Shown here piece after piece: positions 2,291 to 48,864 of a stretch of DNA of 64,000 bases (positions are counted from its first letter, which is position 1; every line of letters starts with the position of its first letter). This stretch comes from Candidatus Eiseniibacteriota bacterium. Lineage in GTDB: Bacteria > Eisenbacteria > RBG-16-71-46 > SZUA-252. Location of the stretch: positions 28,030 to 92,029 of the forward strand of contig DASUFL010000056.1 of the NCBI GenBank assembly GCA_036274595.1. The letters run 5' to 3'. A program made the position numbers and the translations under genes. The notes beneath the pieces are model-generated. The model was not told the origin of the DNA and did no database searches. It saw only the letters and a program-made list of their open reading frames with translations.

Positions 2291-5200
2291 TTACCTGGCG
2301 ATTCTCAGAACGGGCAGGCGGCGCACGTAGGAGGCGTTTCCCACGCGCATCCGTACGAAGTAGATGCCGTGGGCCAGGTGGTCCAGGGGAAGCGAGGTGC
2401 GGTGGATCCCCGCCTCGCGCGACGTGAGGCCGAGGCCGGCCACCAAGCGGCCGGTGACGGCGTAGATCCCGAGGGAGACCTCGCCCGGCTGAGCGAGCGT
2501 GTACTCCAGAACGGCGCGCCCTCCTTCGACGCGAGGGCGCCCCAGGGATGTCCGGAAGGATGGGCCGGCGCTCCGCGGCTCCTCCATCGTCATCGCCATC
2601 TCCATGCCAGGGCCATGGTGGTCCGGGCAGCCCTCGAGCGAGTTGTAGGCCTGCCCGTCGTCCGACGCGCGATGCACGTAGGACTCGCGCGGAACCCCGA
2701 CGACCACCGACCCATCCGCGACTCCTCCGCCTCGCGTCACGGCGGTGAAGAAGACGCGGTAGACGCGGCCGTTGCCGCCGTCCACTCGCTCCCTGCGAAG
2801 ATAGAGCTGGCCTCCGACGACCGCGGCGTCCGTGCAGGGACGGTCCGCGCCGTCCCGCCGCAACGGCTCGTCCTGCGTCACGCGCGTCACGTGGATCGAA
2901 GCGGGAGCGCCGTCGGAGTCGATCACGCCCGCGATCTCCACCGGAGCCAGCGCGCGATCGGGAGGCCAGAGTCGCGATGGCTCGGCGCGCGCGGTCGCCA
3001 CTTGAGGCTTCGGGCCCTTGGGCGGAACCACGGTGAACTGCCGCATCATGTCGTTGTCTTCGTGCTCGAGCATGTGGCAGTGGAAGACGTAATCCCCCAG
3101 ATAACCGTCGGGGCCGAAGCGCATGATGACGCGCAGGAGCTCGTGCGGCTTCACCCGCGCCGTGTCCTTCCAGCCGGCCTCGTCGGGATCCGGCGGCCGC
3201 CTGTCCGGGCCCGGGATCACCTGGCCATCGACGACCTCGAAGCTCGAGCGGTCGAGGACCTGGAACTCGACCAGATGCACGTGGATGGGGTGCTCTTCCA
3301 GCGTCTCGTTCGCGAACTGCCAGATCTCGGTCGTGCCCAGAGCAGGGAACTCGGTGGCCTCGCCCCAGCCGAAGTCTCCAAAGAGGAACTTCTGCCGGAC
3401 CTGGTCGAAGCGGAGCTGGAACGTCCGGGTTCGGACGGCCTGGCTCTCGGGGGTGCGCTCCACGGTCTCGAGCGAGGAAGGGAGCGGCGCCGTCCAGCCC
3501 GCATTCCCCGAGACGACGAACTTCATGACCCTGGATGCGGCAGGATCGTTGCGATCCATCTGACCCGACTCGAGCCTGTCCTCGAGGAGCAGCTCCGAGC
3601 CCGGGGCGTCATCGCCGAAGTCGATCACGATGTCGGCCCGCTCCGCGGGTCCGAGCGTGAGCTCGCGGACCTCGACCGGCGCGGAGAGGAGGCCGCCGTC
3701 GCTCGCGATCACGTGGAACGGGCGCCGATCCGAAAGGGCGAGCGTGAAGATCCGGTGGTTGGAGCCGTTCACCACGCGAAACCGATACTTCCCTCGGTCC
3801 ACGCTTAGCTTCGGCCACACCATGCCGTTCACGAGGACCTTGTCGCCCAGGAACGGCTTCATCTCCCACATGGCCGGGTAACGAAGCGACCCGTCCGTAT
3901 GGAACGAGCGGTCCTGGACGAGGAGCGGGACCTCGTACCGACCGCGCGGGAGCGGGAGCGACTCTTCCCCGCGGCCGCGAATCAGGTAGAGACCGGCCAG
4001 CCCCATCATCACGTTGTAGCGCGTGATGCCGAGGGCGTGATCGTGGTACCAGAGCGTCGTCGGCAGCTGCGTGTTCGGATACCGGTATAGCCTCGAGCCG
4101 CCGGAGACGAACGTCGACTCCGGGAATCCGTCGGAGTCGGACGGGACGTGACCTCCGTGGAGATGCACCACGGTGCGCGGTGACGCTCCGTCCGCGTCGG
4201 GACCGCCCATGTGAGTGTCGATCTCGAAGTAATGCGTCGTCCGCGCAAGACCGGTCTCGATGTCCCGGAGATCGTTGATCCAGCGGACGTGAACCGGCTG
4301 ATTTTCGGAGGCCTCGATCGTGGGCCCCGGGAATCTCCCGTCGTAACCCCAGAGCGTGGTGGGTGGCAGATCCCGGTGGAGCTTCTGCCGAAACTCCTTC
4401 ATCGCGAGGTCGTACCAGGCGGCGCCTCCCGAGCGGCCGCGGAGCGGCCGCGCGACCGGCGGGATCGGGAGATCGTCCACGTAAGGCTCCAGGCAGACCT
4501 GTTCGTCGCAGGTGGAGTTGTCCCCGGCGTAGGACCCCGACGCGGCGTCGCATTCGTCGTGGGTCAGGAGGTCGCACGTGCCGTCCGGCTTGCAGCAGGC
4601 TCCCGCGGGATGGGTGAAGAAGACTGTCAACGTGGGGCGGAGTTTGGGATCGGGATGCTGGCGGCTCGCGTATCGCGCTCCCGTTCCTCCCCGCGTCTCG
4701 TCCCCCCGCAAGATCCAGCCGTGATTCGACGACGGATCCTCGGCCCAGCCGACGACGTCCCGCACGATCCCGCTGCCTTCCAGGATGACGACCTGCATCC
4801 ACCCCGGGAACGATCCGGAGTCGCTGAACACGCTCTCGAAATTTCCGCCATGCAAGGGTTCGCCCGCCTCCGTCGACCAGACGGTCCGCGCCCCGAAGAA
4901 TCGGTAATGCCAGGTCGAGGCCATCTCGGTCGGAGTCCGGCCCCATTGCTTGGGGCGGGCGGTGCATACGTCCAGGGCGCCCTCATCGCCCTCGCCCCAA
5001 TCCTGGTTCAGCCTGTGAACGTAGAGGCGATCGCCCGGGCCACCCGGCAGGAACCGGAACAGGTTGAGTCGCGCGGAGACGATCCGACTTCCCGCGGGAA
5101 TGGCCGAGAGGTCGAACTGGAGGAGCGATCGTCGGATGAGCGGCTGGCGCTCCGTGGAGATGGTGGGGCGCCCCACCTGGAGGCACTCTCCCGCCCCGTA

Positions 5201-5344
5201 GCTCAGGTTGGACTCCGAGTAGATCACGTTGTCCCGGACGGCCGGCAGCGTCATCTCGTCGGAACGCGATGGGCGGGGGTGGGCGATCACCATGAGGATC
5301 AGGATCGCGACGAATGGCCGTATCGGGGCGCGATGACGGGGCAC
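2291..5344 (-). CDS. Multicopper oxidase (three-cupredoxin, CotA/bilirubin-oxidase-like) with N-terminal beta-sandwich domain, Cys-rich linker and T9SS-type C-terminal sorting domain
   Basis: Copper-ligand motifs are HLHGGHV, WYHDHALGITRYNVMMGLAG, HPIHVHLVEFQV and HCHMLEHEDNDMM. The N-terminal region (…RRSLLQFDLSAIPAGSRIVSARLNLF…) looks like a DNRLRE-type beta-sandwich domain. A linker CCKPDGTCDLLTHDECDAASGSYAGDNSTCDEQVC follows. The C-terminus (…GEVSLGIYAVTGRLVAGL…HGIYFVRMRVGNASYVRRLPVL) resembles a Por secretion tail / FlgD-Ig-like CTD. The start is uncertain: GTG at 5344 immediately precedes the hydrophobic signal-like segment PIRPFVAILILMVIAHP; the in-frame ATGs at 5419 and 5596 give long non-signal N-termini. 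Confidence 0.75.
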   Translation of the reverse strand: MPRHRAPIRPFVAILILMVIAHPRPSRSDEMTLPAVRDNVIYSESNLSYGAGECLQVGRPTISTERQPLIRRSLLQFDLSAIPAGSRIVSARLNLFRFLPGGPGDRLYVHRLNQDWGEGDEGALDVCTARPKQWGRTPTEMASTWHYRFFGARTVWSTEAGEPLHGGNFESVFSDSGSFPGWMQVVILEGSGIVRDVVGWAEDPSSNHGWILRGDETRGGTGARYASRQHPDPKLRPTLTVFFTHPAGACCKPDGTCDLLTHDECDAASGSYAGDNSTCDEQVCLEPYVDDLPIPPVARPLRGRSGGAAWYDLAMKEFRQKLHRDLPPTTLWGYDGRFPGPTIEASENQPVHVRWINDLRDIETGLARTTHYFEIDTHMGGPDADGASPRTVVHLHGGHVPSDSDGFPESTFVSGGSRLYRYPNTQLPTTLWYHDHALGITRYNVMMGLAGLYLIRGRGEESLPLPRGRYEVPLLVQDRSFHTDGSLRYPAMWEMKPFLGDKVLVNGMVWPKLSVDRGKYRFRVVNGSNHRIFTLALSDRRPFHVIASDGGLLSAPVEVRELTLGPAERADIVIDFGDDAPGSELLLEDRLESGQMDRNDPAASRVMKFVVSGNAGWTAPLPSSLETVERTPESQAVRTRTFQLRFDQVRQKFLFGDFGWGEATEFPALGTTEIWQFANETLEEHPIHVHLVEFQVLDRSSFEVVDGQVIPGPDRRPPDPDEAGWKDTARVKPHELLRVIMRFGPDGYLGDYVFHCHMLEHEDNDMMRQFTVVPPKGPKPQVATARAEPSRLWPPDRALAPVEIAGVIDSDGAPASIHVTRVTQDEPLRRDGADRPCTDAAVVGGQLYLRRERVDGGNGRVYRVFFTAVTRGGGVADGSVVVGVPRESYVHRASDDGQAYNSLEGCPDHHGPGMEMAMTMEEPRSAGPSFRTSLGRPRVEGGRAVLEYTLAQPGEVSLGIYAVTGRLVAGLGLTSREAGIHRTSLPLDHLAHGIYFVRMRVGNASYVRRLPVLRIAR

Positions 5345-5521
5345 GTGCTCTCGCAAGGAGGATGGGCCGCTGCTCAGCCGGGGTCGAAGCAAGCCCCTAC
5401 GGGGGGCTGGTCCACACATTGAGGGTAGAGGGGCTCGCGCGGACCCGACAAGGTAGCCGAAGGTGGCATGCCCCCGTCGGCGCCGAGCGAATCGCCTCGC
5501 GGCCCGCGCGGCCTCCCGCAC

Positions 5522-5550
5522 TTGAGCCGTCCGCGTCGGCGCGGTACACT
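5522..5550 (+). promoter_or_regulatory. Sigma70-like promoter TTGAGC-17-TACACT, 8 nt upstream of the ATG (leaderless transcript predicted)
   Basis: TTGAGC lies at 5522-5527, a 17-nt spacer follows, and TACACT lies at 5545-5550. ATG is at 5559 and there is no SD. Confidence 0.35.
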
Positions 5551-5558
5551 GCCCGGCC

Positions 5559-6608
5559 ATGTCCGAGTACGACAAGAACAACCCCGAGCCCCTCAAGCCC
5601 CTCTACGATCCCGTGGGCGACCACGCGCCTGCCGCGCTCGTGACCGGGCCGACCGGCGCCATCGGCCGCGTCGTCTGCCGCGAGCTCGTGCAGAACGGCT
5701 ATCGCGTGCTCGGGCTGACCCGGAACTCGGACCAGTTGGCGCGTCTTCCGTACGCGGTCGTCCCCGTGCTCGGCGACATCCGGGATCCGGGGCGCTGGGA
5801 CTCGGCGATCACCCGCGCGGACGTCGTGATCCACGCGGCCATTCCGGCCGCTCCCAAGGGACCCAAGGACCGCGCGTACGCCGCGCGCGAAGCCGAGGAG
5901 CTGGCCTTGATCGCCACGGGCATCGCGACGGCTGTCCGGAAGAAGAAGAAGCGGCTCATCGCCACCTCGAGCGCGATCCTGTTCGAGCCGAACAGGGACG
6001 GCTGGGTGACGGAGTCGAGCGGCTACTCCGAAGGGAAGGGCTATGGCATCCGCCAGCGCCGGATCTATCGCGCGATCCAGGACCAGCGAAGGAAGGGGCT
6101 CAAGGCGATCGTGATGTGCCCCGCATTCGTCTACGGGCCGGGCGGATGGTTCGAGAAGTCGATGCTCGAGCCGATGGGCCGCGGCGAATCGCGGATGATC
6201 GGCGAGGGCAATCAGACGATGCATTATGTCGAAGGGGGCGATGTCGGCCGCGCCTACCGGCTCGCCATCGAGCACGGCGTGGACGGCGACGACTACCTGA
6301 TCGGCGACGACAAGCCGACCACGCACGGAGCCTTCACGCGGCTCGTGGCCCGCGAGATGGGCGCGCCGTCGCCGGTCTCCGTGCCCGAGGAAGATCTCAT
6401 CCCGATCCTGGGAGAATGGGGCCTCGAGGCGATGACCACGTGCCCCAAGATCGACTCCACGCGCGCGCGCGAGCGCCTGGGCTGGACCCCAGAGTACAAG
6501 ACGACCGAGGAAGGCGTGCCGGTCGTCGTGCGCGACTACAAGTGGCGCCGCGAGATGGCGCCGGACCTCGAGCCCTTCCGACCGGTCCAGCACCGAAGCT
6601 GGACGTGA
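5559..6608 (+). CDS. NAD(P)-dependent epimerase/dehydratase family oxidoreductase (SDR)
   Basis: Rossmann motif LVTGPTGAIGRVVCREL is followed by …VLGDIRD…; the protein is about 349 aa. ATG at 5559. Confidence 0.8.
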   Translation: MSEYDKNNPEPLKPLYDPVGDHAPAALVTGPTGAIGRVVCRELVQNGYRVLGLTRNSDQLARLPYAVVPVLGDIRDPGRWDSAITRADVVIHAAIPAAPKGPKDRAYAAREAEELALIATGIATAVRKKKKRLIATSSAILFEPNRDGWVTESSGYSEGKGYGIRQRRIYRAIQDQRRKGLKAIVMCPAFVYGPGGWFEKSMLEPMGRGESRMIGEGNQTMHYVEGGDVGRAYRLAIEHGVDGDDYLIGDDKPTTHGAFTRLVAREMGAPSPVSVPEEDLIPILGEWGLEAMTTCPKIDSTRARERLGWTPEYKTTEEGVPVVVRDYKWRREMAPDLEPFRPVQHRSWT

Positions 6609-10959: not shown

Positions 10960-13236
10960 TTGGACCTGGAACCGGGTAAGAAGCTCTCGCACTACAAGAT
11001 CCTCGAGAAGCTCGGGGAAGGGGGCATGGGCGTCGTCTTCCGCGCCCATGACGACCGCCTCAAGCGAGACGTCGCCATCAAGGTGCTCCGCGGCGGCCGC
11101 TGGGGCGACCAGAGCCTGCGCGAGCGATTTCGCCTCGAAGCGTTCGCGCTCTCCCGCGTCAATCATCCGAACGTGGCCGTGATCTACGAATTCGGCGAGA
11201 GTCACCGCGTCCAGTTCATCGCCATGGAGTACATCCCCGGAATCACGCTCGGCCATCGGATGCGGTCGGGTCCCGTGGCGCAGGCGGAGGCGATCGATCT
11301 CGCCATCCAGATCGCGGACGGTCTGTCGGCCGCCCACGTGGCGGGTGTCGTCCATCGCGATCTCAAACCGGCCAACGTCCGGCTCCTGAACGAGACCTGG
11401 GCGAAGATCGTCGACTTTGGCCTTGCGAAGCGCCTCCCCCGTCCTTCGGATAGCGATCCTCGTTCGCTCACCGAATCCGACAAGATCGTAGGCACCGTGC
11501 CCTACATGGCTCCTGAGCAGATTCGCGGCCAGTGCGACGTGCGAACCGACGTCTACGCGCTCGGAGCGGTGCTCTACCAGATGGCCACGGGCCAGCGGCC
11601 GTTCCCTCAGGAGGACATGCCGCGGCTCATCTACGCCATCGCCTACGAGCCCCCTCCGCCGGTTCGATCCCTCAACCCGGGCGTGTCGCCGCCGCTCGAA
11701 CGGCTCATCCTTCGCGCGCTCGAGAAAGAGCCCGATCTGAGATACGCGACCGCGCAGGAGATCGCTGTCGCCCTCAAAGAGATCCGGGATCTGATCCGCT
11801 CCGGCGGCTCACCCCATGCGGCGCCGGCCCGGCCGCGCCCCATTCGCACGCTGGCGGTGCTGCCACTCGAGGAGATTTCGGGGAGCTCCGACGGGGACTA
11901 CTTCGCGGATGGGATCACCGAGGCGATCATCAGCGACTTGTCGAAGTTGAAGGGGCTGGGCGTCACCGGACGGACGTCCATCATGCGCTACAAGCGGACG
12001 ACGAAGCCGATCCCCGAGATCGCTCGCGAGCTGGGCGTCGACTCGGTGCTCGAGGGTACCGTGCAGCGCGTGGGAGACCGCGTGCGCACGGGCGTGCGTC
12101 TGGTTCGCGCGGCGCCGGAGGAGTCGATCTGGGCCGAGACGTACGACCGCCGTCTCATGGACCTCCTGACGCTCCAGAGCGACATTGCGCGCTCGGTCGC
12201 GCGCGAGATCGAGCTGCAGATGAAGCCGAGCGAGCCGGCGTTCGCGGTGCGCTCGCCCGCGGTGGATCCCGAGGCCCTCGTCCTCTACATGACGGGACGC
12301 CAGCAGTGGAACCGCCGCGACATCGACGGGCTCAGGGCGGCGATCCGGTGCTTCGAAGGAGTCGTCGCCAAGTCGCCCGACTTCGCGCTCGCGTTCGCGG
12401 GGCTCGCCGATTGCTACGCCATTCTTGGGAATTGGAGCGTTCTTCCCCCTCGCGACGTCTACCCGAAGGCCAAGAAGGCCGCGCTCCGAGCGCTCGCTCT
12501 CGATCCCAATCTGGGCGAGGCTCACGTCGCCCTCGCGTTCGCCGAATACCTCTACGACTGGAAGTGGGAGCAGGCGGAGCAGGGGTTCCGGCGCGCGATC
12601 GAGCTCAGCCCGAGCTATGCGCAGGGCCACCTGTGGTACGGCAACTTCCTGTCGGCCATGGGGCGACACGACGAGGCGATCGCGGAAGCCCGACGTGGAC
12701 AGGAGCTCGATCCCCTGAGCCCGATCATCTCCGCGATTGCGGCCTGGATCCACTACGAGGCGGGCCGCTACGAGGAGACGGTCGAGCGTTGCCGGCGCGA
12801 TCTCGAGATGAATCCGATCCCGCAGTACTACCTGTTCATGGGGCTCGCGCTCACACAGCTCGGCGAATACGATGAGGCGATCGCTTCATTCGAGCGCGGC
12901 GTTTCGCTCTCCGGTGGGATCACCGAGATGTATGCCGGGCTCGGTTTCGCGTACGGCGTCTCGAAGCGCACGGCGGAGGCCTATCGCGTGCTCGACGAGC
13001 TGGACCGGCTCTCCAAGAGCCGCTACGTGCCCCCCTACTCGCGCTCCATCGTGCACATCGGGCTCGGCGAGCGCGCGAAAGCGCTCGATCTCCTCGAGCA
13101 GGCGTGCGAGGAGCGCAACACATGGCTCATCCTTCTTGGAGTGGAGCCCCTCTTCAACTCCATCCGCGAGGAACCCCGCTTCCAGAGAATCCTGGATGTG
13201 ATCGGGCTCCCGAGCCAGCAGACCGCCGCCGTCTAG
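10960..13236 (+). CDS. Ser/Thr protein kinase with central TolB-N-like domain and C-terminal TPR repeats
   Basis: GEGGMGVVFRA, AIK, HRDLKPAN, DFG and APE are Hanks kinase motifs. The middle region LAVLPLEEISGSSDGDYFADGITEAIISDLSKLKGLGV…IWAETYDRRL matches the TolB-amino-terminal-like pattern. TPR-like helices occupy the C-terminal ~300 aa. The start is TTG at 10960. Confidence 0.85.
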   Translation: MDLEPGKKLSHYKILEKLGEGGMGVVFRAHDDRLKRDVAIKVLRGGRWGDQSLRERFRLEAFALSRVNHPNVAVIYEFGESHRVQFIAMEYIPGITLGHRMRSGPVAQAEAIDLAIQIADGLSAAHVAGVVHRDLKPANVRLLNETWAKIVDFGLAKRLPRPSDSDPRSLTESDKIVGTVPYMAPEQIRGQCDVRTDVYALGAVLYQMATGQRPFPQEDMPRLIYAIAYEPPPPVRSLNPGVSPPLERLILRALEKEPDLRYATAQEIAVALKEIRDLIRSGGSPHAAPARPRPIRTLAVLPLEEISGSSDGDYFADGITEAIISDLSKLKGLGVTGRTSIMRYKRTTKPIPEIARELGVDSVLEGTVQRVGDRVRTGVRLVRAAPEESIWAETYDRRLMDLLTLQSDIARSVAREIELQMKPSEPAFAVRSPAVDPEALVLYMTGRQQWNRRDIDGLRAAIRCFEGVVAKSPDFALAFAGLADCYAILGNWSVLPPRDVYPKAKKAALRALALDPNLGEAHVALAFAEYLYDWKWEQAEQGFRRAIELSPSYAQGHLWYGNFLSAMGRHDEAIAEARRGQELDPLSPIISAIAAWIHYEAGRYEETVERCRRDLEMNPIPQYYLFMGLALTQLGEYDEAIASFERGVSLSGGITEMYAGLGFAYGVSKRTAEAYRVLDELDRLSKSRYVPPYSRSIVHIGLGERAKALDLLEQACEERNTWLILLGVEPLFNSIREEPRFQRILDVIGLPSQQTAAV

Positions 13237-13706
13237 AGGCCGCCGGGGCCGATGATCCGGAGCGTCGCCTTGGTCGGGCTCGTGCGAATCACGTAGGTGC
13301 GGGTCATGAGCGACTGGATCGTGTCGAGGAGCTTCGGGTCGTTCGAGACGACCGAGACGCCGACCAGGACCGCGGAGCGCGGATCGCCGGGCGCGTGGGG
13401 CTGGCCGATCCAGTTGTCCCAGTCGAGCCGGTAGTCGCGCCGCACGAACGCGAACCCCACCGGCAGGCGGCTCACGAGCTCCAGGGGAGGAATTCCGGGG
13501 GACAGGTCCGCGGGCCACTTCGACGTATCCCCGTAGTTCATGTACGCCGCGGCACGGATGGCGTAGAGATCGCCCACCGCCTGCATGGCGTGCGTGCTCC
13601 GCATGATGCTGAAGTAACCCGTGATCGAGATGGCGCCCACGATCGAAACCACGAGGAGCGCGATCGACAGCTCGATCAGGGTGAACCCTGACTGCCCCTG
13701 CCTCAT
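13233..13706 (-). CDS. Prepilin-type N-terminal cleavage/methylation domain protein (type IV pilin or pseudopilin-like)
   Basis: ATG at 13706 gives MRQGQSGFTLIELSIALLVVSIVGAI, the class-III signal / N-methylation motif. 157 aa. Its 3' end overlaps the kinase stop by 4 nt (convergent). Confidence 0.7.
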   Translation of the reverse strand: MRQGQSGFTLIELSIALLVVSIVGAISITGYFSIMRSTHAMQAVGDLYAIRAAAYMNYGDTSKWPADLSPGIPPLELVSRLPVGFAFVRRDYRLDWDNWIGQPHAPGDPRSAVLVGVSVVSNDPKLLDTIQSLMTRTYVIRTSPTKATLRIIGPGGL

Positions 13707-13836: not shown

Positions 13837-14595
13837 CTAACGACCGTCGATCCGTCCCAGAAGGCGGAGCAGCCCGTCGAGGATCGTGACCGGGTGCGGC
13901 GGGTGCCCGGGCACGAAGAGATCCACGGGCACGACCGACGCCGCGCCGTCGAGCACCTCCGGATGTCCCGCAAAGGGCCCGCCCGAGATCGCAGCCGCGC
14001 CCACCGCGATCACGATCTTGGGCGGCGGGATCGCATCGTAGGTCTTCTCGAGCGCGAGCCGCATGTTCCGCGTGACGGGGCCGGTGATGAGGAGCCCGTC
14101 GGCGTGGCGCGGCGACGCGACGAACTGGATGCCGAAGCGGCCGAGATCGAACACGACATTGCCGAGCGCGGCCGCTTCCAGCTCGCACCCCGCCGATCCG
14201 CCAGCGCTCACTTGGCGCAGCCTGAGCGAGCGGCCGAACAACCGCCGGGCTTCGCGGTCCAGCGCCTGGGCCAGGCGGTAGGGCTCCTCCCCGACGACGA
14301 GGTCCTCGCGTTCCCGCGCGGCCATGCGGTAGTCGGATCCGAAGCGGATCGCGCCGGTCGGGCAGGCGGCGACGCACTCCGCGCAGAACAGGCATCGGCC
14401 GAGATCGAGAGTGAGCGCGGGCTCGAGGCGGATCGCGTCGGTGGGGCACCGCTCCGCGCACGCGCGGCATCCCTCCTCGCAGCGGGACGGGTCGAGCACG
14501 GGCCGCCCGCGGAACGTCCCTGGCAGCGAGACGTCCGCCGGGAACGGAATCGTGCGGCGCCCCTGGCGGAGACGCTCGAGAAACGCTTTCAGCAT
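13837..14595 (-). CDS. Fused 2x[4Fe-4S] ferredoxin (HycF/NuoI-like) and NuoB/HycG-like small subunit with degenerate N2-cluster site
   Basis: The N-terminus carries CEEGCRACAERCP and CLFCAECVAACP, two intact CxxCxxCxxxCP motifs. The C-terminus aligns to NuoB (FDLGRFGIQFVASPRHADGLLITG…YDAIPPPKIVIAVGAAAISGG…VPVDLFVPGHPPHP). The canonical cysteines of CCxxE, GxCxxGG and GCPP are replaced (only one Cys remains, in GCELE). ATG at 14595. Confidence 0.8.
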   Translation of the reverse strand: MLKAFLERLRQGRRTIPFPADVSLPGTFRGRPVLDPSRCEEGCRACAERCPTDAIRLEPALTLDLGRCLFCAECVAACPTGAIRFGSDYRMAAREREDLVVGEEPYRLAQALDREARRLFGRSLRLRQVSAGGSAGCELEAAALGNVVFDLGRFGIQFVASPRHADGLLITGPVTRNMRLALEKTYDAIPPPKIVIAVGAAAISGGPFAGHPEVLDGAASVVPVDLFVPGHPPHPVTILDGLLRLLGRIDGR

Positions 14596-14623: not shown

Positions 14624-16111
14624 TCACAGGTCGTGTCCGCTGTAGGAGAGGTTGAAGCTCTTGTTGCAGAGCGGGAAATCGGAGATCGGCTGGTCCCGCA
14701 TCGCCATCGCGAGCCCGGTCCAGTTGTGGAACGAGGGATCGACGATCTTGTATCGACGGAAGCGGCCTTCGCCGTCGGTGACCGCCGTGTGGCAGATCTC
14801 GCCGCGCCAGCCCTCCACGAGCGACACGGCGATGCACTCGGGCGCGAGCCTGGGCAGGGCGCCGTCCCGCCGCGCCGCTCCTTCCGGAAGCGACGAGAGG
14901 ACCCGCGCGATGAACTCGGCCGAGTGCGCAACCTCGAGCGAACGCACACCTGCCCGCGCGAACGCGTCTCCCGTGTCCCGTGTCGCGACCGGGATCGCGG
15001 CCTCCCGGTAGAGACCCTCGGGATGGTCGCGGCGAACGTCCCGATCGAGACCGGACGCGCGCGCGGCGGGCCCCACCATTCCGAGCGATTCGGCGATGTC
15101 GCGCTTGAGGACCCCGGTCTCCTCGAGCCGGCCGCGGACGGTCGCGTTGGCCCGGATCAGCTCGAAGGAGCGCGCCAGCTCCGCGGTCAGGGCCAGGACC
15201 GCGCCGGCGATGGCTCCCGTATCGGCCGGCGACAGATCGGCACCGACTCCGCCGGGACGCACCCACCCGACTCCCATCCGGCTCCCGCAGGCGAGCAGCG
15301 TGAGGTTGAGCAGATCGCCCCGGATCCGGCCGCAGTAGGAGGCGGCGGGAAGGTAGCCGATGTCCCCCGCGAGCGCACCGAAGTCACCGGCGTGGTTCGC
15401 CATGCGCTCCAGCTCGAGCGCCGCCGCCCGCAGCGCGCGTCCCCGTGCCGGAACCTCGATCCCGGCGAGCGCCTCGACCACGATGGAGTAGGCGAGCGCG
15501 TGCCCCACCGACGTGTCGCCCGCGATCGCGTCCACGAGGTGCGGGGTTCGCTTCCCCGGTCCGCCTTCGAGGGCCCGCTCGATCCCGCGGTGCTGGTAAC
15601 CGAGCGAGATCTCGAGGTGGAGCACGCGCTCCCCGTGGCACTGGAACCGGAAGTGTCCCGGCTCGATCACCCCCGCGTGCACGGGGCCGACCGCCACCTC
15701 GTGCACCTCGTCTCCCGCCACACGGAAGTACTCCATGACTCCCGGTCCCGGCCCGTTGGGGTCGTTGAAGCGGACCGGCTTGAGCCACGGATGCCCCTCA
15801 GGCAGCACCCCCCACTCCTCCGCGATCTCGCGCTCGAAGAGATGGGCCTGCGGGAACCGGGGCGTCAACGCGGGGAAGGCGCTCTCGGCCCGCGTCGACG
15901 TGAGCATGAGCTCCTCCCCTCCGGAGTGCGCCACCACGGCGATGAGGCGGAGTCCCGCGTCCCGCTCCGGCAGGCCGAAGAGCGAGACGAGCCGTGCGCC
16001 CGGAGCCGTCGTGACGGCATCGGCAAACCGGTCCGGCGTGACCCGGGGGATCGTCGCGAGCGGAGCGGTCCCGCCGTTGGCCATCGGGACGCAGGCCTGG
16101 ATGGGTGTCAT
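14624..16111 (-). CDS. NuoC-NuoD / HycE-like large subunit of a group-4-hydrogenase-related complex, lacking the NiFe cysteine ligands
   Basis: GPVHAGVIEPGHFRF…LGYQHRGIE is typical of group-4 hydrogenase and NuoD. The region equivalent to the N-terminal RxCGxC motif reads AIAGDTSVGHALAYSIVVEAL, with no Cys. The C-terminal DPCxxCxxH equivalent reads SDFPLCNKSFNLSYSGHDL. ATG at 16111 overlaps the upstream stop (ATGA). Confidence 0.8.
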   Translation of the reverse strand: MTPIQACVPMANGGTAPLATIPRVTPDRFADAVTTAPGARLVSLFGLPERDAGLRLIAVVAHSGGEELMLTSTRAESAFPALTPRFPQAHLFEREIAEEWGVLPEGHPWLKPVRFNDPNGPGPGVMEYFRVAGDEVHEVAVGPVHAGVIEPGHFRFQCHGERVLHLEISLGYQHRGIERALEGGPGKRTPHLVDAIAGDTSVGHALAYSIVVEALAGIEVPARGRALRAAALELERMANHAGDFGALAGDIGYLPAASYCGRIRGDLLNLTLLACGSRMGVGWVRPGGVGADLSPADTGAIAGAVLALTAELARSFELIRANATVRGRLEETGVLKRDIAESLGMVGPAARASGLDRDVRRDHPEGLYREAAIPVATRDTGDAFARAGVRSLEVAHSAEFIARVLSSLPEGAARRDGALPRLAPECIAVSLVEGWRGEICHTAVTDGEGRFRRYKIVDPSFHNWTGLAMAMRDQPISDFPLCNKSFNLSYSGHDL

Positions 16112-17580
16112 GGCGCGAGCATGCCGGCCGCCGAACGGAGCGCGTGCGCGAGGCCCGAGGGAATGTATAGGCCGATCGCGAGCACCGCCGCGGCGAGGAC
16201 CAGCGGAGGCAGGACGGCGAGGCGGCTCTCGCCATGTGCGGATCCCGCGGGCAGGGGCGGCGCCTCTCCTTGCGCCATCCGCGACATCGTGGACGCCATA
16301 CCGATGAAGATCACGGCGAGGAGGACGAGGTAGAGCACGCCGATCACGATCCGTCCCTGCTCCATCGCCCCGCGCAGGATGAGGATCTCGCTCACGAACG
16401 TTCCGAACGGCGGCGAGCCCGTGATCGCGAAGAGCCCCGCGATCCAGAGCGCGCCGGTCGCGGGGACGCGCGCCAGGACGCCGCGGACCTCTCTCGCGGC
16501 CTTGGTGCGGTAGGCGGCCAGGATGTTGCCGGCGAGGAGGAAGAGCATCGCCTTCGTGAGGGAGTGGCCCAGGACATGGAGCATCGCTCCGAACGTGGCG
16601 ACCCCTCCGAGTCCCACGCCCAGGGCCAGGATGCCCATGTGCTCCACGCTCGAGTAGGCGAGAAGGCGCTTGTAGTCCGCCTGGGCGATCACGAACGCGG
16701 CGGCGATCGCCATCGAGAGGAGCCCGAAGACGACCAGCATCCCGCGCGCGTAGGTGTCGAGGCCCGCCGCGCTCATGACCTGGAGCGCCCGCAGGATGCC
16801 GAGGAACGCGCAGTTGAGGAGCGCGCCCGAGAGGAGGGCCGAGACGACCGAGGGCGCCTCGCTGTGGGCGTCGGGAAGCCACGTGTGAAGCGGAGCGAGT
16901 CCCATCTTGGTGCCGTAGCCGACGAGCAGGAAGATGAACGCGCCCTTGAGCCAGGGCGTGTGCAGCAGAGCCGCGTGCGCCCGGAGCCCTTGCACGCTCA
17001 AGGGAATGCTCCCTCCGCCGTGGACCGTCGCGGACACGGCGAGGAAGAAGTTCCCCAGGAGCGCGAGGCCGATCCCCACCGAGCAGATGAGGAGATACTT
17101 CCAGGTCGCCTCGAGGGAGCGGTGGTGGCGGTGGAAGTAGATGAGCGGCGCGCTCGCGAGGGTCGTCGCCTCGATGGCCACCCAGAGGAGCCCCAGGTTG
17201 TCGCTCACGATCACGAGCGTCATCGTCGAGAGAAAGAAGAGGAGGCAGCCGACGAAGACCGCTTCGGGAGCATTCGTGAACCGGAAGCCTTCCACGAAGT
17301 CCTCGCGGGCTCCGGGCGACTCGCGGCGGAGGTAACCGACCGCGTAGACCGCGGAGACCAGGAAGAGGGCGCTCGTGACGCCGAGGAAGAGCTGCCCGAG
17401 CGAATCCAGGCGGAGCACGCCGCCCCACCCGGTGCCCGGCGGCCGGACCCACGTCGCGACCGTCAGTGCGGCGTGGGCGGCCGCCACGGCGATCATGAGC
17501 GCGCGGCGCCACGCCGCGGGCCGGAGAAAGAAGCTGAGGAGCCCGCCCAGAGCCGGGAGGAGCACGAGCGCGGAGAGCAT
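16108..17580 (-). CDS. NuoN/NuoM/HyfF-like proton-pumping antiporter subunit
   Basis: The protein is multi-TM. …GILALGVGL…HSLTKAMLFLLAGNI… are Mrp/NuoMN family signatures. ATG at 17580. Confidence 0.8.
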   Translation of the reverse strand: MLSALVLLPALGGLLSFFLRPAAWRRALMIAVAAAHAALTVATWVRPPGTGWGGVLRLDSLGQLFLGVTSALFLVSAVYAVGYLRRESPGAREDFVEGFRFTNAPEAVFVGCLLFFLSTMTLVIVSDNLGLLWVAIEATTLASAPLIYFHRHHRSLEATWKYLLICSVGIGLALLGNFFLAVSATVHGGGSIPLSVQGLRAHAALLHTPWLKGAFIFLLVGYGTKMGLAPLHTWLPDAHSEAPSVVSALLSGALLNCAFLGILRALQVMSAAGLDTYARGMLVVFGLLSMAIAAAFVIAQADYKRLLAYSSVEHMGILALGVGLGGVATFGAMLHVLGHSLTKAMLFLLAGNILAAYRTKAAREVRGVLARVPATGALWIAGLFAITGSPPFGTFVSEILILRGAMEQGRIVIGVLYLVLLAVIFIGMASTMSRMAQGEAPPLPAGSAHGESRLAVLPPLVLAAAVLAIGLYIPSGLAHALRSAAGMLAP

Positions 17581-17582
17581 CG

Positions 17583-18227
17583 CTATTCCTTGAGCGTCGC
17601 GAGCCGGGTCGTGTCGATCGAGTCGAACTCGCGGCTGATGTGGAAGACCGTGATCCCCATGACGAACACGGCGACGAACACGTCGAGGAGGATGCCCAGC
17701 TCGACGAGGGCGGGCGCCTCGTACGCGATGCCCACGCCGAACGCATAGATCCCGTTCTCGAAGACGAGATAGCCGAGCGCCTGGCTCAGAGCCTTCTTCC
17801 GGCTCACCACGAGGAAGAGGCCGACGAAGAGGATCGAGAGCGAGGTCGGGACGAGCAGATCCGACGCCGCCGTGCCCGGCAGCGGCAGCCGGCCCGCCAC
17901 CCACAGCGCGATCAGGAACGAGCCCACGCCGGCGAGCACCGACGGCACGTACCCGACGAAGGGCTCGACCTCGCGGCGGACCTTGGCGCCTCGGAGCGCC
18001 CGGAGGAGGAGCCAGGGAAAGACGACGCCCTTGAGCGCGATCCCCGCCAGGCCGATCGCGATGAAGCGGAGCGTCAGGTGACCCGAGTTCGCGAGGAGGG
18101 CGACGATCCCGAGCAGCACCCCCTGGGTCGCCACGGTGCGGATGCTCGCGTTCAGCCGGCTCACACCGAGCAGGCGGAGGTTCGTGAACACGAGCAGGAC
18201 CATCAGCGTGTCGAGGAGGACGCGCAC
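17583..18227 (-). CDS. HyfE/NuoK-like small membrane subunit
   Basis: About 215 aa with 6-7 TM helices (LLGIVALLANSGHLTLRFIAIGLAGIALKGVVFP…). The start is uncertain: GTG at 18227 lies 2 nt after the upstream stop, or ATG at 18203. Confidence 0.6.
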   Translation of the reverse strand: MRVLLDTLMVLLVFTNLRLLGVSRLNASIRTVATQGVLLGIVALLANSGHLTLRFIAIGLAGIALKGVVFPWLLLRALRGAKVRREVEPFVGYVPSVLAGVGSFLIALWVAGRLPLPGTAASDLLVPTSLSILFVGLFLVVSRKKALSQALGYLVFENGIYAFGVGIAYEAPALVELGILLDVFVAVFVMGITVFHISREFDSIDTTRLATLKE

Positions 18228-18229
18228 GG

Positions 18230-19141
18230 CTATCTCAGGATGAGGGCGATCGCGACGATCGCGAACGCCCCCGCTCCGATCAGGAACTGCGGCACCCGCG
18301 CCATGCGGAGCCGCGCGATGGTGGATTCGATCACGCCGATCGCGACCGCGAGCCCGGCCATCGCGGCGAGGAATGAGGCCGCGTCCAGCCACGCCGAGCC
18401 GGTCCGGATCGGAAGCATGACCCCGACCGACAAGGCCCCCATCACCCAGAGCTTGAGCGCGGCGCCCCACTGGATCCACGCGAGGTCGGGGCCGCCGTGA
18501 TCGAGCACCATCACTTCGTGGATCATCGTCAGCTCGAGGTGCGTGGCGGGGTCGTCCACGGGAATCCGCGAGTTCTCGGCGAGGAGCACACCGAGGAGCG
18601 CGACGCCCACGAGGAGGAGCACGGGCGCGCCCCGCTGCCAGTCCGCCTCGGTCAGCCCGCCCACGATGCCGGTGAGCGACGCGCTCCCCGAGACGCGCGC
18701 CGCGGCCGCGAGGCAGAGGAGGAGCACGGGCTCCGCCAGCGCCGAGAAGGTCGCTTCGCGGCTCGCCCCCATGCCCTCGAAGCTCGAGCCCGTATCGAGC
18801 GCGGCCGCCATCGTGAGGAAGCGGGCGGACGCGAGCAGCGCCGCGAGGAGGACGAAGTCCCCCGGAAACGCGATCAGCGAGGGGAAGCCGGCCTGGGGGA
18901 GGAGGCTGAGCGCGGCGATCGGCGCGCCGATCGCGACCGCGGGCCCCAGCGCGAACACGCCGGTCGTGGTGCGGCTCAGGACCGCCCCCTTGCGGAGGAG
19001 CTTCGCGAGGTCGAAGTAGACCTGGAGCATCGGCTGCCCGTTGCGCCCCGCGAAGACCGCCTTGGTTCTGTGGATCACGCCGAGGAAGAGCGGCGCCGCC
19101 AGCAACGCGACGACGGGGCCCACGAGTCCTGGCGTGTTCAT
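18230..19141 (-). CDS. NuoH/HycD-like membrane subunit (formate hydrogenlyase subunit 4 family)
   Basis: 303 aa, multi-TM, with NuoH-like architecture. ATG at 19141. Confidence 0.75.
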   Translation of the reverse strand: MNTPGLVGPVVALLAAPLFLGVIHRTKAVFAGRNGQPMLQVYFDLAKLLRKGAVLSRTTTGVFALGPAVAIGAPIAALSLLPQAGFPSLIAFPGDFVLLAALLASARFLTMAAALDTGSSFEGMGASREATFSALAEPVLLLCLAAAARVSGSASLTGIVGGLTEADWQRGAPVLLLVGVALLGVLLAENSRIPVDDPATHLELTMIHEVMVLDHGGPDLAWIQWGAALKLWVMGALSVGVMLPIRTGSAWLDAASFLAAMAGLAVAIGVIESTIARLRMARVPQFLIGAGAFAIVAIALILR

Positions 19142-19163: not shown

Positions 19164-21158
19164 TCATGGATTCACCAGGAACTGATAGACGAGGACGGCC
19201 AGGAGCGTGAGCGCGATGTAGAGCACGTAGATCTGAACGCGTCCTTCCTGGATGCGCCGGAAGTGCCCGAGGCGCCGGCCCATCTCGTTCGCGATCGGCG
19301 TGACGACCCGCTCGCGGAAGGTGTCGGTCGTGGCGGTCGCGTGCGACGCCTGCGCGGGAAAGAGCCCCGTCGGCTTCAGGGACGAGATGCGCGTCCCCAG
19401 GACGGGGGCGAAGATCTCGAGAACAGGCTGCGCGAACGAGGAGCCGGTGTACTGCATGCGTGAAGTCGGGGCGGCGTAGCCGCAGCCCCACGTCGGAACG
19501 CGCGCGGGCCGCCGCCGCGCGAGAAGGGCCGCCCGGGTGGCGAGAGCCAAGAGCGTGAGAACGAGGAAAGCCGCGGCCACCGCGGCGATCCTCGCGAGGA
19601 TGGCGGCCGCGGTGTCCAGCTCGGCGGTGACGGCCGCCTTGGAGAGCGCTGATGCTGCATCGAGCTCCCCGATGGGCGCGGCCGTGGCGACGTAGGGCAC
19701 GGCCGGCGCGAGCGCGCGCAAGACCCAGGGCCCGCCGAGGCCGATCGCGAGGCAGAGCGCAGCCAGGATGGCCATCGGCGCGCGAAGGAGCGCGCCCGAC
19801 TCGTGGGCCTCGCGCGCGGCGGCGGTTCGTGCTTCCCCCAGGAACGCGATGCCGAACGCCCTCACGAAACAGACCGCGGCGAACCCGCCGATCAGGGCCA
19901 GCCCGGCAATGAGCACGAATCCGGACAGCGCGACCTGGCTCGACGAAACCGCCGCCGCGCGGAAGGGGCCCAGGAGGATCAGGAACTCTCCCAGGAACCC
20001 GTTGAGCGGCGGGAGCCCCGCGATCGCCATGGCGCCCGTCAGGAAGACCCCTCCGGTCCAGGGCATGCGACGGAGGAGTCCCCCGAGACCCTCGATCTCC
20101 CCCGTGCCCGTCCCATGGATCAAGGAGCCCGCGGCGAGGAAGAGGAGCCCCTTGAAGAGGGCGTGATTCAAAACGTGGAGGAGCGCTCCCGCGAACCCGA
20201 GCGCCGCGAGGAACGGCACATGGTGGGACACGCCGATCAGACCCACGCCCATGCCGCACGCGATGATGCCGATGTTCTCGATGCTGGAATATGCGAGCAG
20301 CCGCTTCAGCTCGCTCTGCGCGAGCGCGTAGAGCACCCCCAGGATCCCGGAGATCAGGCCGATGCCGAGGAGGAGCCAACCCCACCAGGGAGGCGGCGGT
20401 CCGAGGAGCGGAAGCGTGCGCAGGAGCCCGTAGATTCCCATCTTGATCATCACGCCCGACATCACCGCGGAGACATGCGCCGGCGCGGCGGGGTGCGCCT
20501 CCGGAAGCCACATGTGGAGCGGCATGAGCCCCGCCTTGGTGCCGAAGCCCACGAGGGCGAGCAGGAAGAGCGCGCCAGGCGCGAGGAGCGGCGGGGCGGC
20601 GCCCTGCTCGATCGGGCCGAAGTCGAGCGAGCTGGACGTCCCGGAGAGCGCGAGGAAGAAGACCATGAGGAAGGCGGTGCCGATGTGCATCGCGATGAGG
20701 TAGGTCCGCCCGGCGTGCCGCACCTCGCGCCGGCCGTGGTGCAGCGTCACGAGGAAATAGGACGCGAGGGTCATGCCCTCCCACGCGACCAGGAACAGGA
20801 TCCCGTTTCGCGCGACGACGACGAGCGCCATGCTGGCGATGAGAAGGTTGAACCAGAGCCACGCGGCGGTGCGGGCTCCGGCGTCGTGCCGGAGATAGCC
20901 TGCGCCGTAGATCGCGGCCAGAGCGGAGAGGCCAAAGACCAGCAGGAGGAAGAAGGCGGACAGCGGGTCGACCCCGACGCTGAAGGACGCGAGCGGGATG
21001 CTCCAGGGGAGCGTGAGCGACTCCGGCGTGGACCGGAGGAGCACTCGGAACGCCGGGATCAGGCCGAGCGCGCACCCTAAGACCGCGCCGGCGGAGCCAA
21101 CCCAGGCGGCGCGCCGTCCCCGGGAGAGCCATGACGACACGCCCGAGAGGACGAGCAC
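19164..21158 (-). CDS. NuoL/HyfB-like large antiporter-type membrane subunit
   Basis: 664 aa. …WLPEAHPAAPAHVSAVMSGVMIKMGIYGLLR… and …LLAYSSIENIGII… are complex I L/M/N-family motifs. GTG start at 21158. Confidence 0.8.
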   Translation of the reverse strand: MLVLSGVSSWLSRGRRAAWVGSAGAVLGCALGLIPAFRVLLRSTPESLTLPWSIPLASFSVGVDPLSAFFLLLVFGLSALAAIYGAGYLRHDAGARTAAWLWFNLLIASMALVVVARNGILFLVAWEGMTLASYFLVTLHHGRREVRHAGRTYLIAMHIGTAFLMVFFLALSGTSSSLDFGPIEQGAAPPLLAPGALFLLALVGFGTKAGLMPLHMWLPEAHPAAPAHVSAVMSGVMIKMGIYGLLRTLPLLGPPPPWWGWLLLGIGLISGILGVLYALAQSELKRLLAYSSIENIGIIACGMGVGLIGVSHHVPFLAALGFAGALLHVLNHALFKGLLFLAAGSLIHGTGTGEIEGLGGLLRRMPWTGGVFLTGAMAIAGLPPLNGFLGEFLILLGPFRAAAVSSSQVALSGFVLIAGLALIGGFAAVCFVRAFGIAFLGEARTAAAREAHESGALLRAPMAILAALCLAIGLGGPWVLRALAPAVPYVATAAPIGELDAASALSKAAVTAELDTAAAILARIAAVAAAFLVLTLLALATRAALLARRRPARVPTWGCGYAAPTSRMQYTGSSFAQPVLEIFAPVLGTRISSLKPTGLFPAQASHATATTDTFRERVVTPIANEMGRRLGHFRRIQEGRVQIYVLYIALTLLAVLVYQFLVNP

Positions 21159-21234: not shown

Positions 21235-21277
21235 CGAGACAAACGGGCCGGCCGCACGTTAGCAGCCGGCGGGCCCC
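21235..21277 (-). terminator. Imperfect GC-rich hairpin plus T-rich tail downstream of the CBM9/DUF5916-like gene
   Basis: On the minus strand, GGGCCCGCCGGC…GGCCGGCCC is followed by GTTTGTCTCG. Confidence 0.3.
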
Positions 21278-25211: not shown

Positions 25212-25300
25212 CCGCGATTGTCGCTCCGTGCACCTCCCTAAGTACCTTCCGCTGGTCCACTTTCGTCCCCGGTCATGGTCGCACGCCCTTCTGCCGATAC

Positions 25301-25310
25301 CTTGTATACT
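25301..25310 (+). promoter_or_regulatory. Candidate -10 element (TTGTATACT) upstream of fadE
   Basis: TATACT at 25305-25310 lies in a locally AT-richer divergent intergenic region, 53 nt before the fadE ATG. No good -35. Confidence 0.3.
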
Positions 25311-25362
25311 CGATAGCAGTTAGCGCCGTTTTCCAGGGACCGGAACAAGGGGTGATTCGAGC

Positions 25363-34711: not shown

Positions 34712-34857
34712 GGACCGGCGACCCCTAGAATTCAGGGACGTCAGGGTCGACCTCGAAGCGAACTCCTCCCCGCCTGGAGACGCCCGTCAGCGATTCCCCG
34801 GTCCCGCCGGGACCGCCTCGCGATTCCGGTTCGAGGACTGACTCCACACCCACCGAG

Positions 34858-48853: not shown

Positions 48854-48864
48854 AAGGGGCGAGG

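Follow-up and report, generated by a model that had tools for sequence, protein, structure and literature searches.

The window analysed here, a stretch of 64,000 nucleotides from a Candidatus Eiseniibacteriota bacterium, carries a six-gene minus-strand operon for a membrane complex of the Ehr type (Ech- or energy-converting-hydrogenase-related). Its small subunit, encoded by the last gene, joins a NuoI-type ferredoxin domain with all its cysteines to a NuoB-type domain in which three of the four cysteines of the N2-type cluster have been replaced. A canonical four-cysteine N2 site is impossible in this subunit. The loss is shared by one clade of a widespread family, in which both domains are under purifying selection and the large subunit has changed as well. 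We consider it reasonably probable that the N2 site is vacant and that electrons get no further than the ferredoxin clusters. On this reading the complex is kept, probably for an ion translocation independent of redox reactions in the pocket where the large and small subunits meet.

A fused small subunit that has lost the N2 ligands

The gene and its parts are as follows.

13837..14595, minus strand: fused small-subunit gene (EhrS-type, NuoI::NuoB), from the open reading frame (ORF), its translation, Pfam/NCBIfam domains and AlphaFold2
14296..14595, minus strand: HycF/NuoI-type 2x[4Fe-4S] ferredoxin domain, amino acids (aa) 1-100, from alignment to HycF, Nqo9 and MbhN
14443..14481, minus strand: first cluster motif, C39-x3-C43-x2-C46-x3-C50-P51, one residue longer than in HycF
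14359..14394, minus strand: second cluster motif, C68-x2-C71-x2-C74-x3-C78-P79, canonical, from translation and alignment
14206..14295, minus strand: linker connecting both domains, aa 101-130, partly helical in the AlphaFold2 secondary structure
13840..14205, minus strand: NuoB/HycG/MbhJ-type domain without N2 ligands, aa 131-252, from Oxidored_q6 (E=4e-23) and Foldseek
14185..14196, minus strand: former N2 CxxC, now S134-A-G-C137 (C-N-G-C in relatives), from alignment to HycG and MbhJ
13993..13995, minus strand: A201 in place of the third N2 cysteine (GAC to GAA), from alignment
13903..13905, minus strand: H231, codon CAC, in place of the fourth N2 cysteine (PGCPP to PGHPP), from alignment

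The ORF runs from an ATG at 14595 to a stop codon at 13839..13837 without internal stops and encodes 252 aa plus the stop, not the 253 aa given in an earlier reading of this DNA made from its letters (hereafter the sequence-only reading). Two Fer4 domains (about aa 32-84) and one Oxidored_q6 domain of the NuoB 20-kDa family (aa 136-244) were found with Pfam. In NCBIfam, aa 1-101 resemble the models for formate hydrogenlyase subunit 6, hydrogenase-4 subunit H (HycF/HyfH-type) and NuoI, and aa 133-249 resemble the NuoB models; all of these scores lie under the curated cut-offs, so the subunit is a divergent relative and not an orthologue. Among solved structures, the N-terminal half aligns with HycF (7z0s_F, residues 9-107), Nqo9 and MbhN, and the C-terminal half with HycG (7z0s_G, residues 34-164), MbhJ and all complex I PSST/NuoB chains. 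An AlphaFold2 model built from 80 homologues reached a mean pLDDT (predicted local distance difference test) of 88 and a pTM (predicted template modelling score) of 0.88. Foldseek matched its C-terminal half to MbhJ (6cfw_J) with a template modelling (TM) score of 0.85 normalised to the target and a root-mean-square deviation of 1.8 Å, and also to PSST/NuoB chains. The linker, which is the most variable segment of the protein, contains a helix at 114-120 and has mean pLDDT values of 85-93 in blocks of ten residues.

The ferredoxin module is intact, as the sequence-only reading had claimed: 8/8 cysteines are present, and all eight are invariant in 204 relatives. That reading had also described two complete CxxCxxCxxxCP motifs. 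This holds for the second, CLFCAECVAACP, which is canonical, and for the full set of cysteines; the first, CEEGCRACAERCP, is Cx3Cx2Cx3CP, and its one-residue insertion relative to HycF and NuoI is invariant in 120/120 of the closest relatives, whether N2-intact or N2-less. Judged by these motifs, the subunit has the features of a NuoI/HycF-type 2x[4Fe-4S] ferredoxin, and occupancy of both clusters is predicted.

The second half of the protein differs. Alignment of the three N2-binding segments of HycG with those of the small subunit (VDCGGCNGCEIE versus VSAGGSAGCELE, GACGNSGG versus GAAAISGG, and PGCPP versus PGHPP) places the ligand positions at S134, C137, A201 and H231. Only C137 is thus left of the four cysteines, and the statement that the NuoB-type cluster ligands are mutated is borne out by alignment to solved structures, with three of four replaced.

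The operon encodes an Ehr-type complex

The small-subunit gene is the last of six tightly packed minus-strand genes, of which the other five are:

19164..21158, minus strand: HyfB/NuoL-like antiporter-type membrane subunit, 664 aa, first gene of the operon (NCBIfam hydrogenase 4 subunit B, 2.9e-186)
18230..19141, minus strand: HyfC/NuoH-like membrane subunit, 303 aa (Pfam NADHdh)
17583..18227, minus strand: HyfE-like membrane subunit, 214 aa (NCBIfam PRK11492, 3e-27)
16108..17580, minus strand: HyfF-like antiporter-type membrane subunit, 490 aa (Pfam/NCBIfam)
14624..16111, minus strand: large subunit (NuoC::NuoD-like, EhrL-type), 495 aa (Pfam Complex1_49kDa and Complex1_30kDa)

The stop of the HyfF-like gene and the start of the large-subunit gene share 4 nt, and the top-scoring NCBIfam models for the membrane subunits are those of hydrogenase-4 B, F and E. 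Because its composition matches the published definition of Ehr, we assign the complex, from its gene content, to this type with six subunits. The large subunit resembles those of group 4 hydrogenases and has none of the four NiFe-binding cysteines; NuoL/M/N-type antiporter-like, NuoH-like and HyfE-like genes stand beside the large- and small-subunit genes; and the NuoB-type small subunit is fused to a NuoI-type ferredoxin, as in many Ehr complexes. The four-cysteine N2 site, which is typical of the Ehr family though perhaps not part of its published definition, is missing here. The name Ehr reportedly goes back to Coppi in 2005, and the complexes are said to have been treated by Marreiros and co-workers in 2013. 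Ehr complexes are defined in the literature, with no function assigned, and a NuoB gene that also encodes a NuoI homologue has already been reported for several of them (PMC6349859, Supplementary Note 4).

The Ehr operons of Geobacter sulfurreducens (GSU0739-0745), Desulfotomaculum ruminis (Desru_3260-3265), Nitrospira and Margulisbacteria have the same gene set as the window operon: genes for NuoL/HyfB-, NuoH-, HyfE- and HyfF-like subunits, a NuoC::NuoD large subunit without the NiFe cysteines, and a small subunit. The window complex departs from them in that three of four N2-type cysteines are replaced and the large subunit is modified along with them.

Two better-known assignments were rejected. 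The large subunit lacks both the L1 (RxCGxCxxxH) and the L2 (DPCxxCxxR/H) motif of group 4 [NiFe]-hydrogenases; relative to HycE (7z0s_E), CGIC has become AGDT and PCYSC has become LSYSG. A true [NiFe]-hydrogenase of the Hyf/Hyc kind is ruled out, since all four NiFe cysteines are gone; the same loss is found in the large subunits of 74-83 of 86 family members. Complex I is characterised by the four-cysteine N2 site of NuoB and by a tyrosine of NuoD (Nqo4 Tyr87, in the DRxDY motif), neither of which is present: DRMDY of Aquifex NuoCD2 (7q5y_B) corresponds to DAIAG here. Membership of the canonical quinone reductases is ruled out by the glycine (Gly198) at the position of this tyrosine. The lost cluster had been called quinone-proximal in the sequence-only reading, a term that does not suit a complex whose large subunit has no NiFe cysteines and carries glycine in place of the quinone-binding tyrosine of NuoD.

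The fusion is old and the N2 loss is specific to a clade

Relatives were collected by scanning one genome per GTDB species, and the best 80 of at least 508 loci were analysed. Fused relatives occur in at least 508 species genomes from many phyla, which answers the suggestion made earlier that the same architecture be sought in related genomes. The best 80 loci belong to Planctomycetota, Verrucomicrobiota, Myxococcota, Binatia, Acidobacteriota, Gemmatimonadales, Elusimicrobia, spirochaetes and others, and also include Desulforhabdus sp. TSK and a Methylococcaceae genome; the closest among the matches listed is a Candidatus Eisenbacteria metagenome-assembled genome (MAG) with 76% identity, and the N2-less clade is placed taxonomically by this one match. 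All 80 encode the fused protein with its eight ferredoxin cysteines. By this distribution, the fusion is the ancestral and widespread architecture of the Ehr-type family. The four N2 positions vary as follows.

120 closest clusters at 90% identity: CCCC 68, S-C-A-H 43, S-C-S-H 5, other 4
80 GTDB loci: CCCC 76, S-C-A-H 1 (the Eisenbacteria MAG), S-C-S-H 0, other 3 (L069 D-S-D-N, L074 no recognised pattern, L083 CCCS)

The 44 top-ranked of the 120 closest clusters are all N2-less. To place the loss, a neighbour-joining tree of 204 distinct sequences was built with the four N2 columns and four co-varying columns masked. CCCC is found in 145 of the 204. The 54 sequences with S-C-A/S-H (or S-G-S-H), S-C-A-H itself occurring in 47 distinct sequences, form one clean clade whose sisters are CCCC. 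Since the masked tree gives a single clade with CCCC sisters, one ancestral loss of N2 explains the pattern, which indicates that the N2 loss is later than the fusion and specific to this clade. The sequence-only reading had presented the fusion as keeping an electron-transfer module while discarding a cluster; no support was found for a link between the two, since the fused architecture is the ancestral one and in most members none of the four N2 cysteines is missing.

Ligand loss is not confined to this clade. In a second lineage, whose members have local sequence features in common, N2 appears to have been lost stepwise (P0067 SCCC, P0077 SCDW and L069 DSDN); L069:10001-10759 comes from an Isosphaeraceae MAG. 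The representatives at 50% identity include many fragments and probably chimeric ORFs, and only the 56 matches that span both domains were used. Among them, distant fused proteins show D/T/D/N-like patterns at N2 (also DIDD, TDES and DVDS), with 4/8 ferredoxin cysteines missing. For example, P0149 (L091:9001-9783; 44% identity) has D-T-D-N at N2 and 4/8 ferredoxin cysteines, enough for one cluster. It lies within the same six-gene operon (L091:2483-9783), followed by two chromate-transporter-family genes. By these patterns, loss of iron-sulfur (FeS) sites is recurrent in the fused family.

Purifying selection and changes in the large subunit

We compared seven N2-less loci: the window, L001, L005, L085, L086, L087 and L088. 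None of the seven has lost an operon gene, L087 covering only the last genes because it ends at a contig edge. On the 925-kb contig of L085 the hyfB-like gene is called as two ORFs of 174 and 462 aa (L085:3569-5430), a frameshift or an assembly error. Flanking genes are unrelated among the N2-less loci, and the same six-gene operon is found in N2-intact and N2-less loci. Pairwise Nei-Gojobori ratios of nonsynonymous to synonymous substitution rates (dN/dS) within the clade lie approximately at 0.07-0.29 in the NuoB domain and 0.11-0.32 in the ferredoxin domain, which places both under purifying selection; in the linker they span 0.07-1.2.

We then compared the clade with its N2-intact relatives at the columns that are at least 90% conserved in the latter. 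Ten conserved columns are replaced in the fusion protein, nine of them in the NuoB domain and eight of these within the three N2-binding segments; the only one in the ferredoxin domain is R27S. The large subunit has eight replaced columns, T195A, A272L, F279M, R281L/V, A315S, W320R, S324T and C491S (numbering of the 495-aa protein), and that of the window carries the clade-specific A195, M279, V281, R320 and S491. In the alignment, position 195 corresponds to the Arg of the RxCGxC / DRxDY motif, and positions 279-281 flank the His position of the GxRxH loop. In Yarrowia complex I, Arg141 and His226 of the 49-kDa subunit are said to adjoin N2, as reportedly found by Grgic and co-workers in 2004 and Zwicker and co-workers in 2006, and we take positions 195 and 279-281 to coincide with or adjoin these two. 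As judged from these alignments, the surface with which the large subunit faces N2 in complex I is remodelled along with the loss of N2.

Residue 491, flanked by the two former NiFe-cysteine positions of the C-terminus, is a Cys (within SYCG) in 70 of 77 N2-intact relatives and a Ser in the window (codon 14639-14641, minus strand). The N2-intact members also conserve C158, C260, C275, C440 and C482 of the large subunit. The nominal active-site region of Ehr complexes, although it lacks the NiFe ligands, is by sequence conserved and rich in cysteines, which may be a clue to the chemistry of the family.

The membrane arm has changed little. Its four subunits keep 66/67 conserved charged columns, the one change being D to E, and the HyfC/NuoH-like subunit keeps 24/24. 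Replacements of conserved columns number 18/279 in the peripheral subunits versus 8/336 in the membrane subunits (Fisher p=0.015), and the latter are all conservative.

Relation to other complexes

In solved structures, the best match for both halves of the small subunit and for the large subunit is E. coli formate hydrogenlyase/hydrogenase-4 (HycF with HycG, HyfH with HyfI; 7z0s). The sequence-only reading was right that the two parts are separate in Hyc/Hyf, 7z0s_F and 7z0s_G being distinct chains of the E. coli enzyme. HycG, moreover, has a CxxC...C...C site and HycE has the NiFe cysteines, all unlike the window complex. FdhF/HycB or HyfA partners and maturation genes (hyp) belong to the E. 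coli systems, and none of these was found in the window. Among the window ORFs scanned with Pfam there were no genes for hydrogenase maturation (hyp) or its endopeptidase, formate dehydrogenase, CO dehydrogenase or NuoEF, a result that covers the window only.

The Hyq endo-hydrogenase (hyqRBCEFGI) of Azorhizobium caulinodans and other microaerophilic diazotrophs (PMC2650096, PMC3357923) has a B-C-E-F-G-I gene order identical to that of the window operon. Like the large subunit here, HyqG is a NuoC::D fusion without both CxxC NiFe motifs, and Hyq hosts are aerobic or microaerobic, a further likeness to the putatively aerobic host of the window. HyqI, in contrast, is unfused, has no ferredoxin domain and keeps the four N2 cysteines (Cys55, 58, 112 and 152), whereas the small subunit here is fused and N2-less; nor does a regulator (hyqR) stand before hyfB in the window. 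Deletion of hyq abolishes H2-recycling activity, whereas no activity is known for the fused family.

The fold of the NuoB half also matches the Q-module of complex I (NuoB/Nqo6/PSST with NuoI/Nqo9/TYKY), with target-normalised Foldseek TM scores of 0.75-0.85, and the clusters of the fused-subunit family follow one another along the wire as they do there (N6a/N6b, then N2). Unlike complex I, the window complex has neither an N-module nor N2, has Gly at the quinone Tyr of NuoD, and has NuoI and NuoB fused. Finally, Mrp-type cation/proton antiporters resemble it, as regards the proposed function only, in having antiporter-like subunits with conserved charged residues and in not requiring a complete electron wire; they lack a peripheral module homologous to NuoB, NuoD, NuoI and NuoH. 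By analogy with them, a mode of action of this kind would be the most likely one for the N2-less form.

A proposed vacant N2 site and the alternatives

We propose the following mechanism. In N2-intact relatives, homology to HycF/HycG, MbhN/MbhJ and Nqo9/Nqo6 predicts three [4Fe-4S] clusters in a row, equivalent to N6a, N6b and N2, as a wire that runs from the surface into the pocket where the large and small subunits meet. In the lineage of the window, the N2 site was lost once, in the common ancestor, and with N2 empty the wire would end at the second ferredoxin cluster. In Thermus complex I, N6b is about 10.5 Å from N2 and N2 about 12 Å from quinone, and the physiological limit of electron tunnelling is roughly 14 Å. 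By these distances, the terminal cluster that remains would lie more than 20 Å from the pocket, beyond the tunnelling limit, so that redox chemistry in the pocket would be abolished in the clade. With the pocket out of reach, the NuoB domain would survive as a structural and coupling element that keeps the large subunit attached to the NuoH-like one. Folding would be the reason for keeping the ferredoxin clusters, possibly along with a role as redox sensor or as donor to a side path, and ion translocation by the unchanged membrane arm the reason for keeping the complex. Of the two roles that the sequence-only reading had offered, a structural one for the NuoB domain is thus the one that the evidence favours, and nothing was found that supports a rewired electron entry.

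Several points weigh against this proposal. The covariation rests on seven N2-less operons of one clade; as one clade is one evolutionary event, the co-changes could be lineage substitutions that hitch-hiked with the loss. L069, which is N2-less independently, does not share the large-subunit changes and keeps the R, W and C residues. Moreover, the residues left at the site are nearly invariant in the sequences other than CCCC, including five variants outside the clade (S134 51/52, C137 51/52, H231 49/52). Synonymous divergence (dS) is about 0.6-1.8 and near saturation, so the dN/dS values are approximate. That the N2 site is empty is inferred from sequence, and redox-independent ion translocation is a hypothesis about a complex whose parent family has no assigned function.

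An alternative that we consider unlikely is that the complex is an oxidoreductase with relocated chemistry, its ferredoxin clusters delivering electrons at the surface to a substrate or a soluble partner, whose reaction would drive or gate the membrane arm through the fused linker. The invariance of the 8/8 ferredoxin cysteines under purifying selection would fit, as would the fusion itself, which covalently ties the ferredoxin domain to the N-terminus of NuoB, the part that contacts the membrane arm in homologues. However, no conserved electron-input partner (formate dehydrogenase, CO dehydrogenase, NuoEF or hyp) adjoins the operon in the window or in the N2-less loci, and no conserved partner gene flanks it in 7/7 of these loci. 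R27S, as the sole change among the conserved columns of the ferredoxin domain, gives no hint of a new interaction surface, and we know of no precedent among complex-I-type enzymes for coupling from the NuoI position.

Ranked below this, and improbable to our mind, is a non-canonical centre at the N2 site, a [4Fe-4S], [2Fe-2S] or mononuclear metal centre held by Cys137, His231, Ser134 and water or another residue, through which electrons would still reach the pocket at an altered potential. Ser134, Cys137 and His231 are nearly invariant in the clade, position 201 varying between A and S, and all three could bind a metal; His and Ser are known minority ligands of FeS clusters, the distal cluster in the small subunit of [NiFe]-hydrogenases having one His. 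The NuoB domain is, in addition, the most constrained part of the protein. Against such a centre, a single cysteine is left and no clade-specific cysteine was gained in the small or the large subunit; when all six subunits were searched for Cys, His, Asp or Glu residues gained by the clade, only H231 and scattered acidic changes came up, which leaves H231 as the sole new potential ligand in the clade. The change of the conserved Arg281, near the cluster-facing loop, to Leu/Val and the loss of the conserved pocket Cys491 resemble dismantling and not retuning, and other lineages have D/T/D/N or D/S/D/N at the same positions, patterns that form no FeS site.

That the operon is a decaying relic, its N2 site eroding after the NiFe site as a pseudogene in the making, is very unlikely and largely refuted: the repeated loss of FeS ligands in the family and the split hyfB of L085 are what decay would leave, but dN/dS is well below 1 in both domains, the window and 5/6 other N2-less loci have all six genes intact (L087 ending at a contig edge), the replacement residues are themselves conserved over 54 diverged sequences, and the membrane arm still has its conserved charged residues.

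A sequencing or assembly artefact, with a missed frameshift joining two genes or errors deleting the cysteines, has a negligible probability, as 759/759 nt of the gene are identical in two independent assemblies from different sequencing runs, the same fused ORF occurs in 120/120 of the closest protein clusters, in 80/80 related loci and in the at least 508 genomes, and the S-C-A-H pattern recurs in 47 distinct sequences. The missed frameshift or stop between the domains that the sequence-only reading had allowed for is hereby excluded, and the fusion is real. A third sequence, an 86.5-kb metagenome contig from the JGI, has the same gene order, and its small-subunit protein (P0001) differs by 1 aa; this sole difference, V221 in the window versus D (13933-13935, minus strand), lies in a loop of the NuoB domain.

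Surroundings of the operon

A CBM9/DUF5916 gene, and no regulator gene, precedes hyfB. Between the two lies a GC-rich hairpin with a T-rich tail, terminator-like, at 21247-21270 (minus strand), which is consistent with an operon start after it. No sigma-70-like promoter was detected there, and the four terminator-like matches are not above chance expectation. Directly downstream of the operon, at about 13233-13706 (minus strand), lies the gene for a protein of 157 aa that carries a prepilin-type N-terminal methylation motif (FTLIELSIALLVV); only the closest relatives (L087, L089 and the JGI contig) share this protein, and more distantly related N2-less loci lack it.

Elsewhere in the window there are genes for an acyl-CoA dehydrogenase, a 2-oxoglutarate dehydrogenase E1 and a pyridine-nucleotide-disulfide oxidoreductase of the dihydrolipoamide dehydrogenase type, an unusually large multicopper-oxidase-domain protein (about 1100 aa; 2291-5602, minus strand) and a Rieske ring-hydroxylating oxygenase (24021-25319). 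The multicopper oxidase and the Rieske oxygenase, together with other genes of the window, point to a putatively aerobic lifestyle of the host. Three genes encode Ser/Thr protein kinases (10960-13236, 34729-37128 and 48502-50520, all on the plus strand), two of them with C-terminal arrays of tetratricopeptide repeats, and a paralogous pair of such kinases flanks the operon in L087.

Meaning for the Ehr family

Neither the protein family nor the operon nor the fusion is new, and the large subunit without NiFe cysteines is the hallmark of Ehr. This is no new kind of system; the fusion is ordinary for the family, and the organisms are uncultured. No description of an N2-less Ehr small subunit was found in the literature searched, a coverage that does not extend to the founding papers (Coppi 2005, Marreiros 2013). 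What appears to be new is a monophyletic, conserved N2-less form with coordinated large-subunit changes, and the recurrent FeS loss in the family.

Often invoked as a link from membrane hydrogenases to complex I, Ehr complexes are frequent in Nitrospira, Geobacter, Planctomycetota, Verrucomicrobiota, Myxococcota and many uncultured phyla. By losing N2 while the rest is under selection, the lineage described here amounts to a natural mutagenesis experiment on them. It identifies the large-subunit positions that co-vary with cluster loss, and for biochemical work it offers N2-intact and N2-less operons that can be compared in matched pairs, at about 70% identity. Moreover, the loss of N2 suggests that at least part of the family function survives without electron delivery to the pocket.

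More tentatively, and as a possibility that we would not yet call probable, this clade and at least two other lineages may each represent a complex-I-like machine that has cut its own electron wire. It would keep the ion-translocating arm and the peripheral scaffold and work as an Mrp-like antiporter or as a conformational device driven by the proton motive force, with its two [4Fe-4S] clusters acting as a redox sensor or gate. If this is true, the unassigned function of Ehr complexes in general would not need electron delivery to the NuoD-like pocket.

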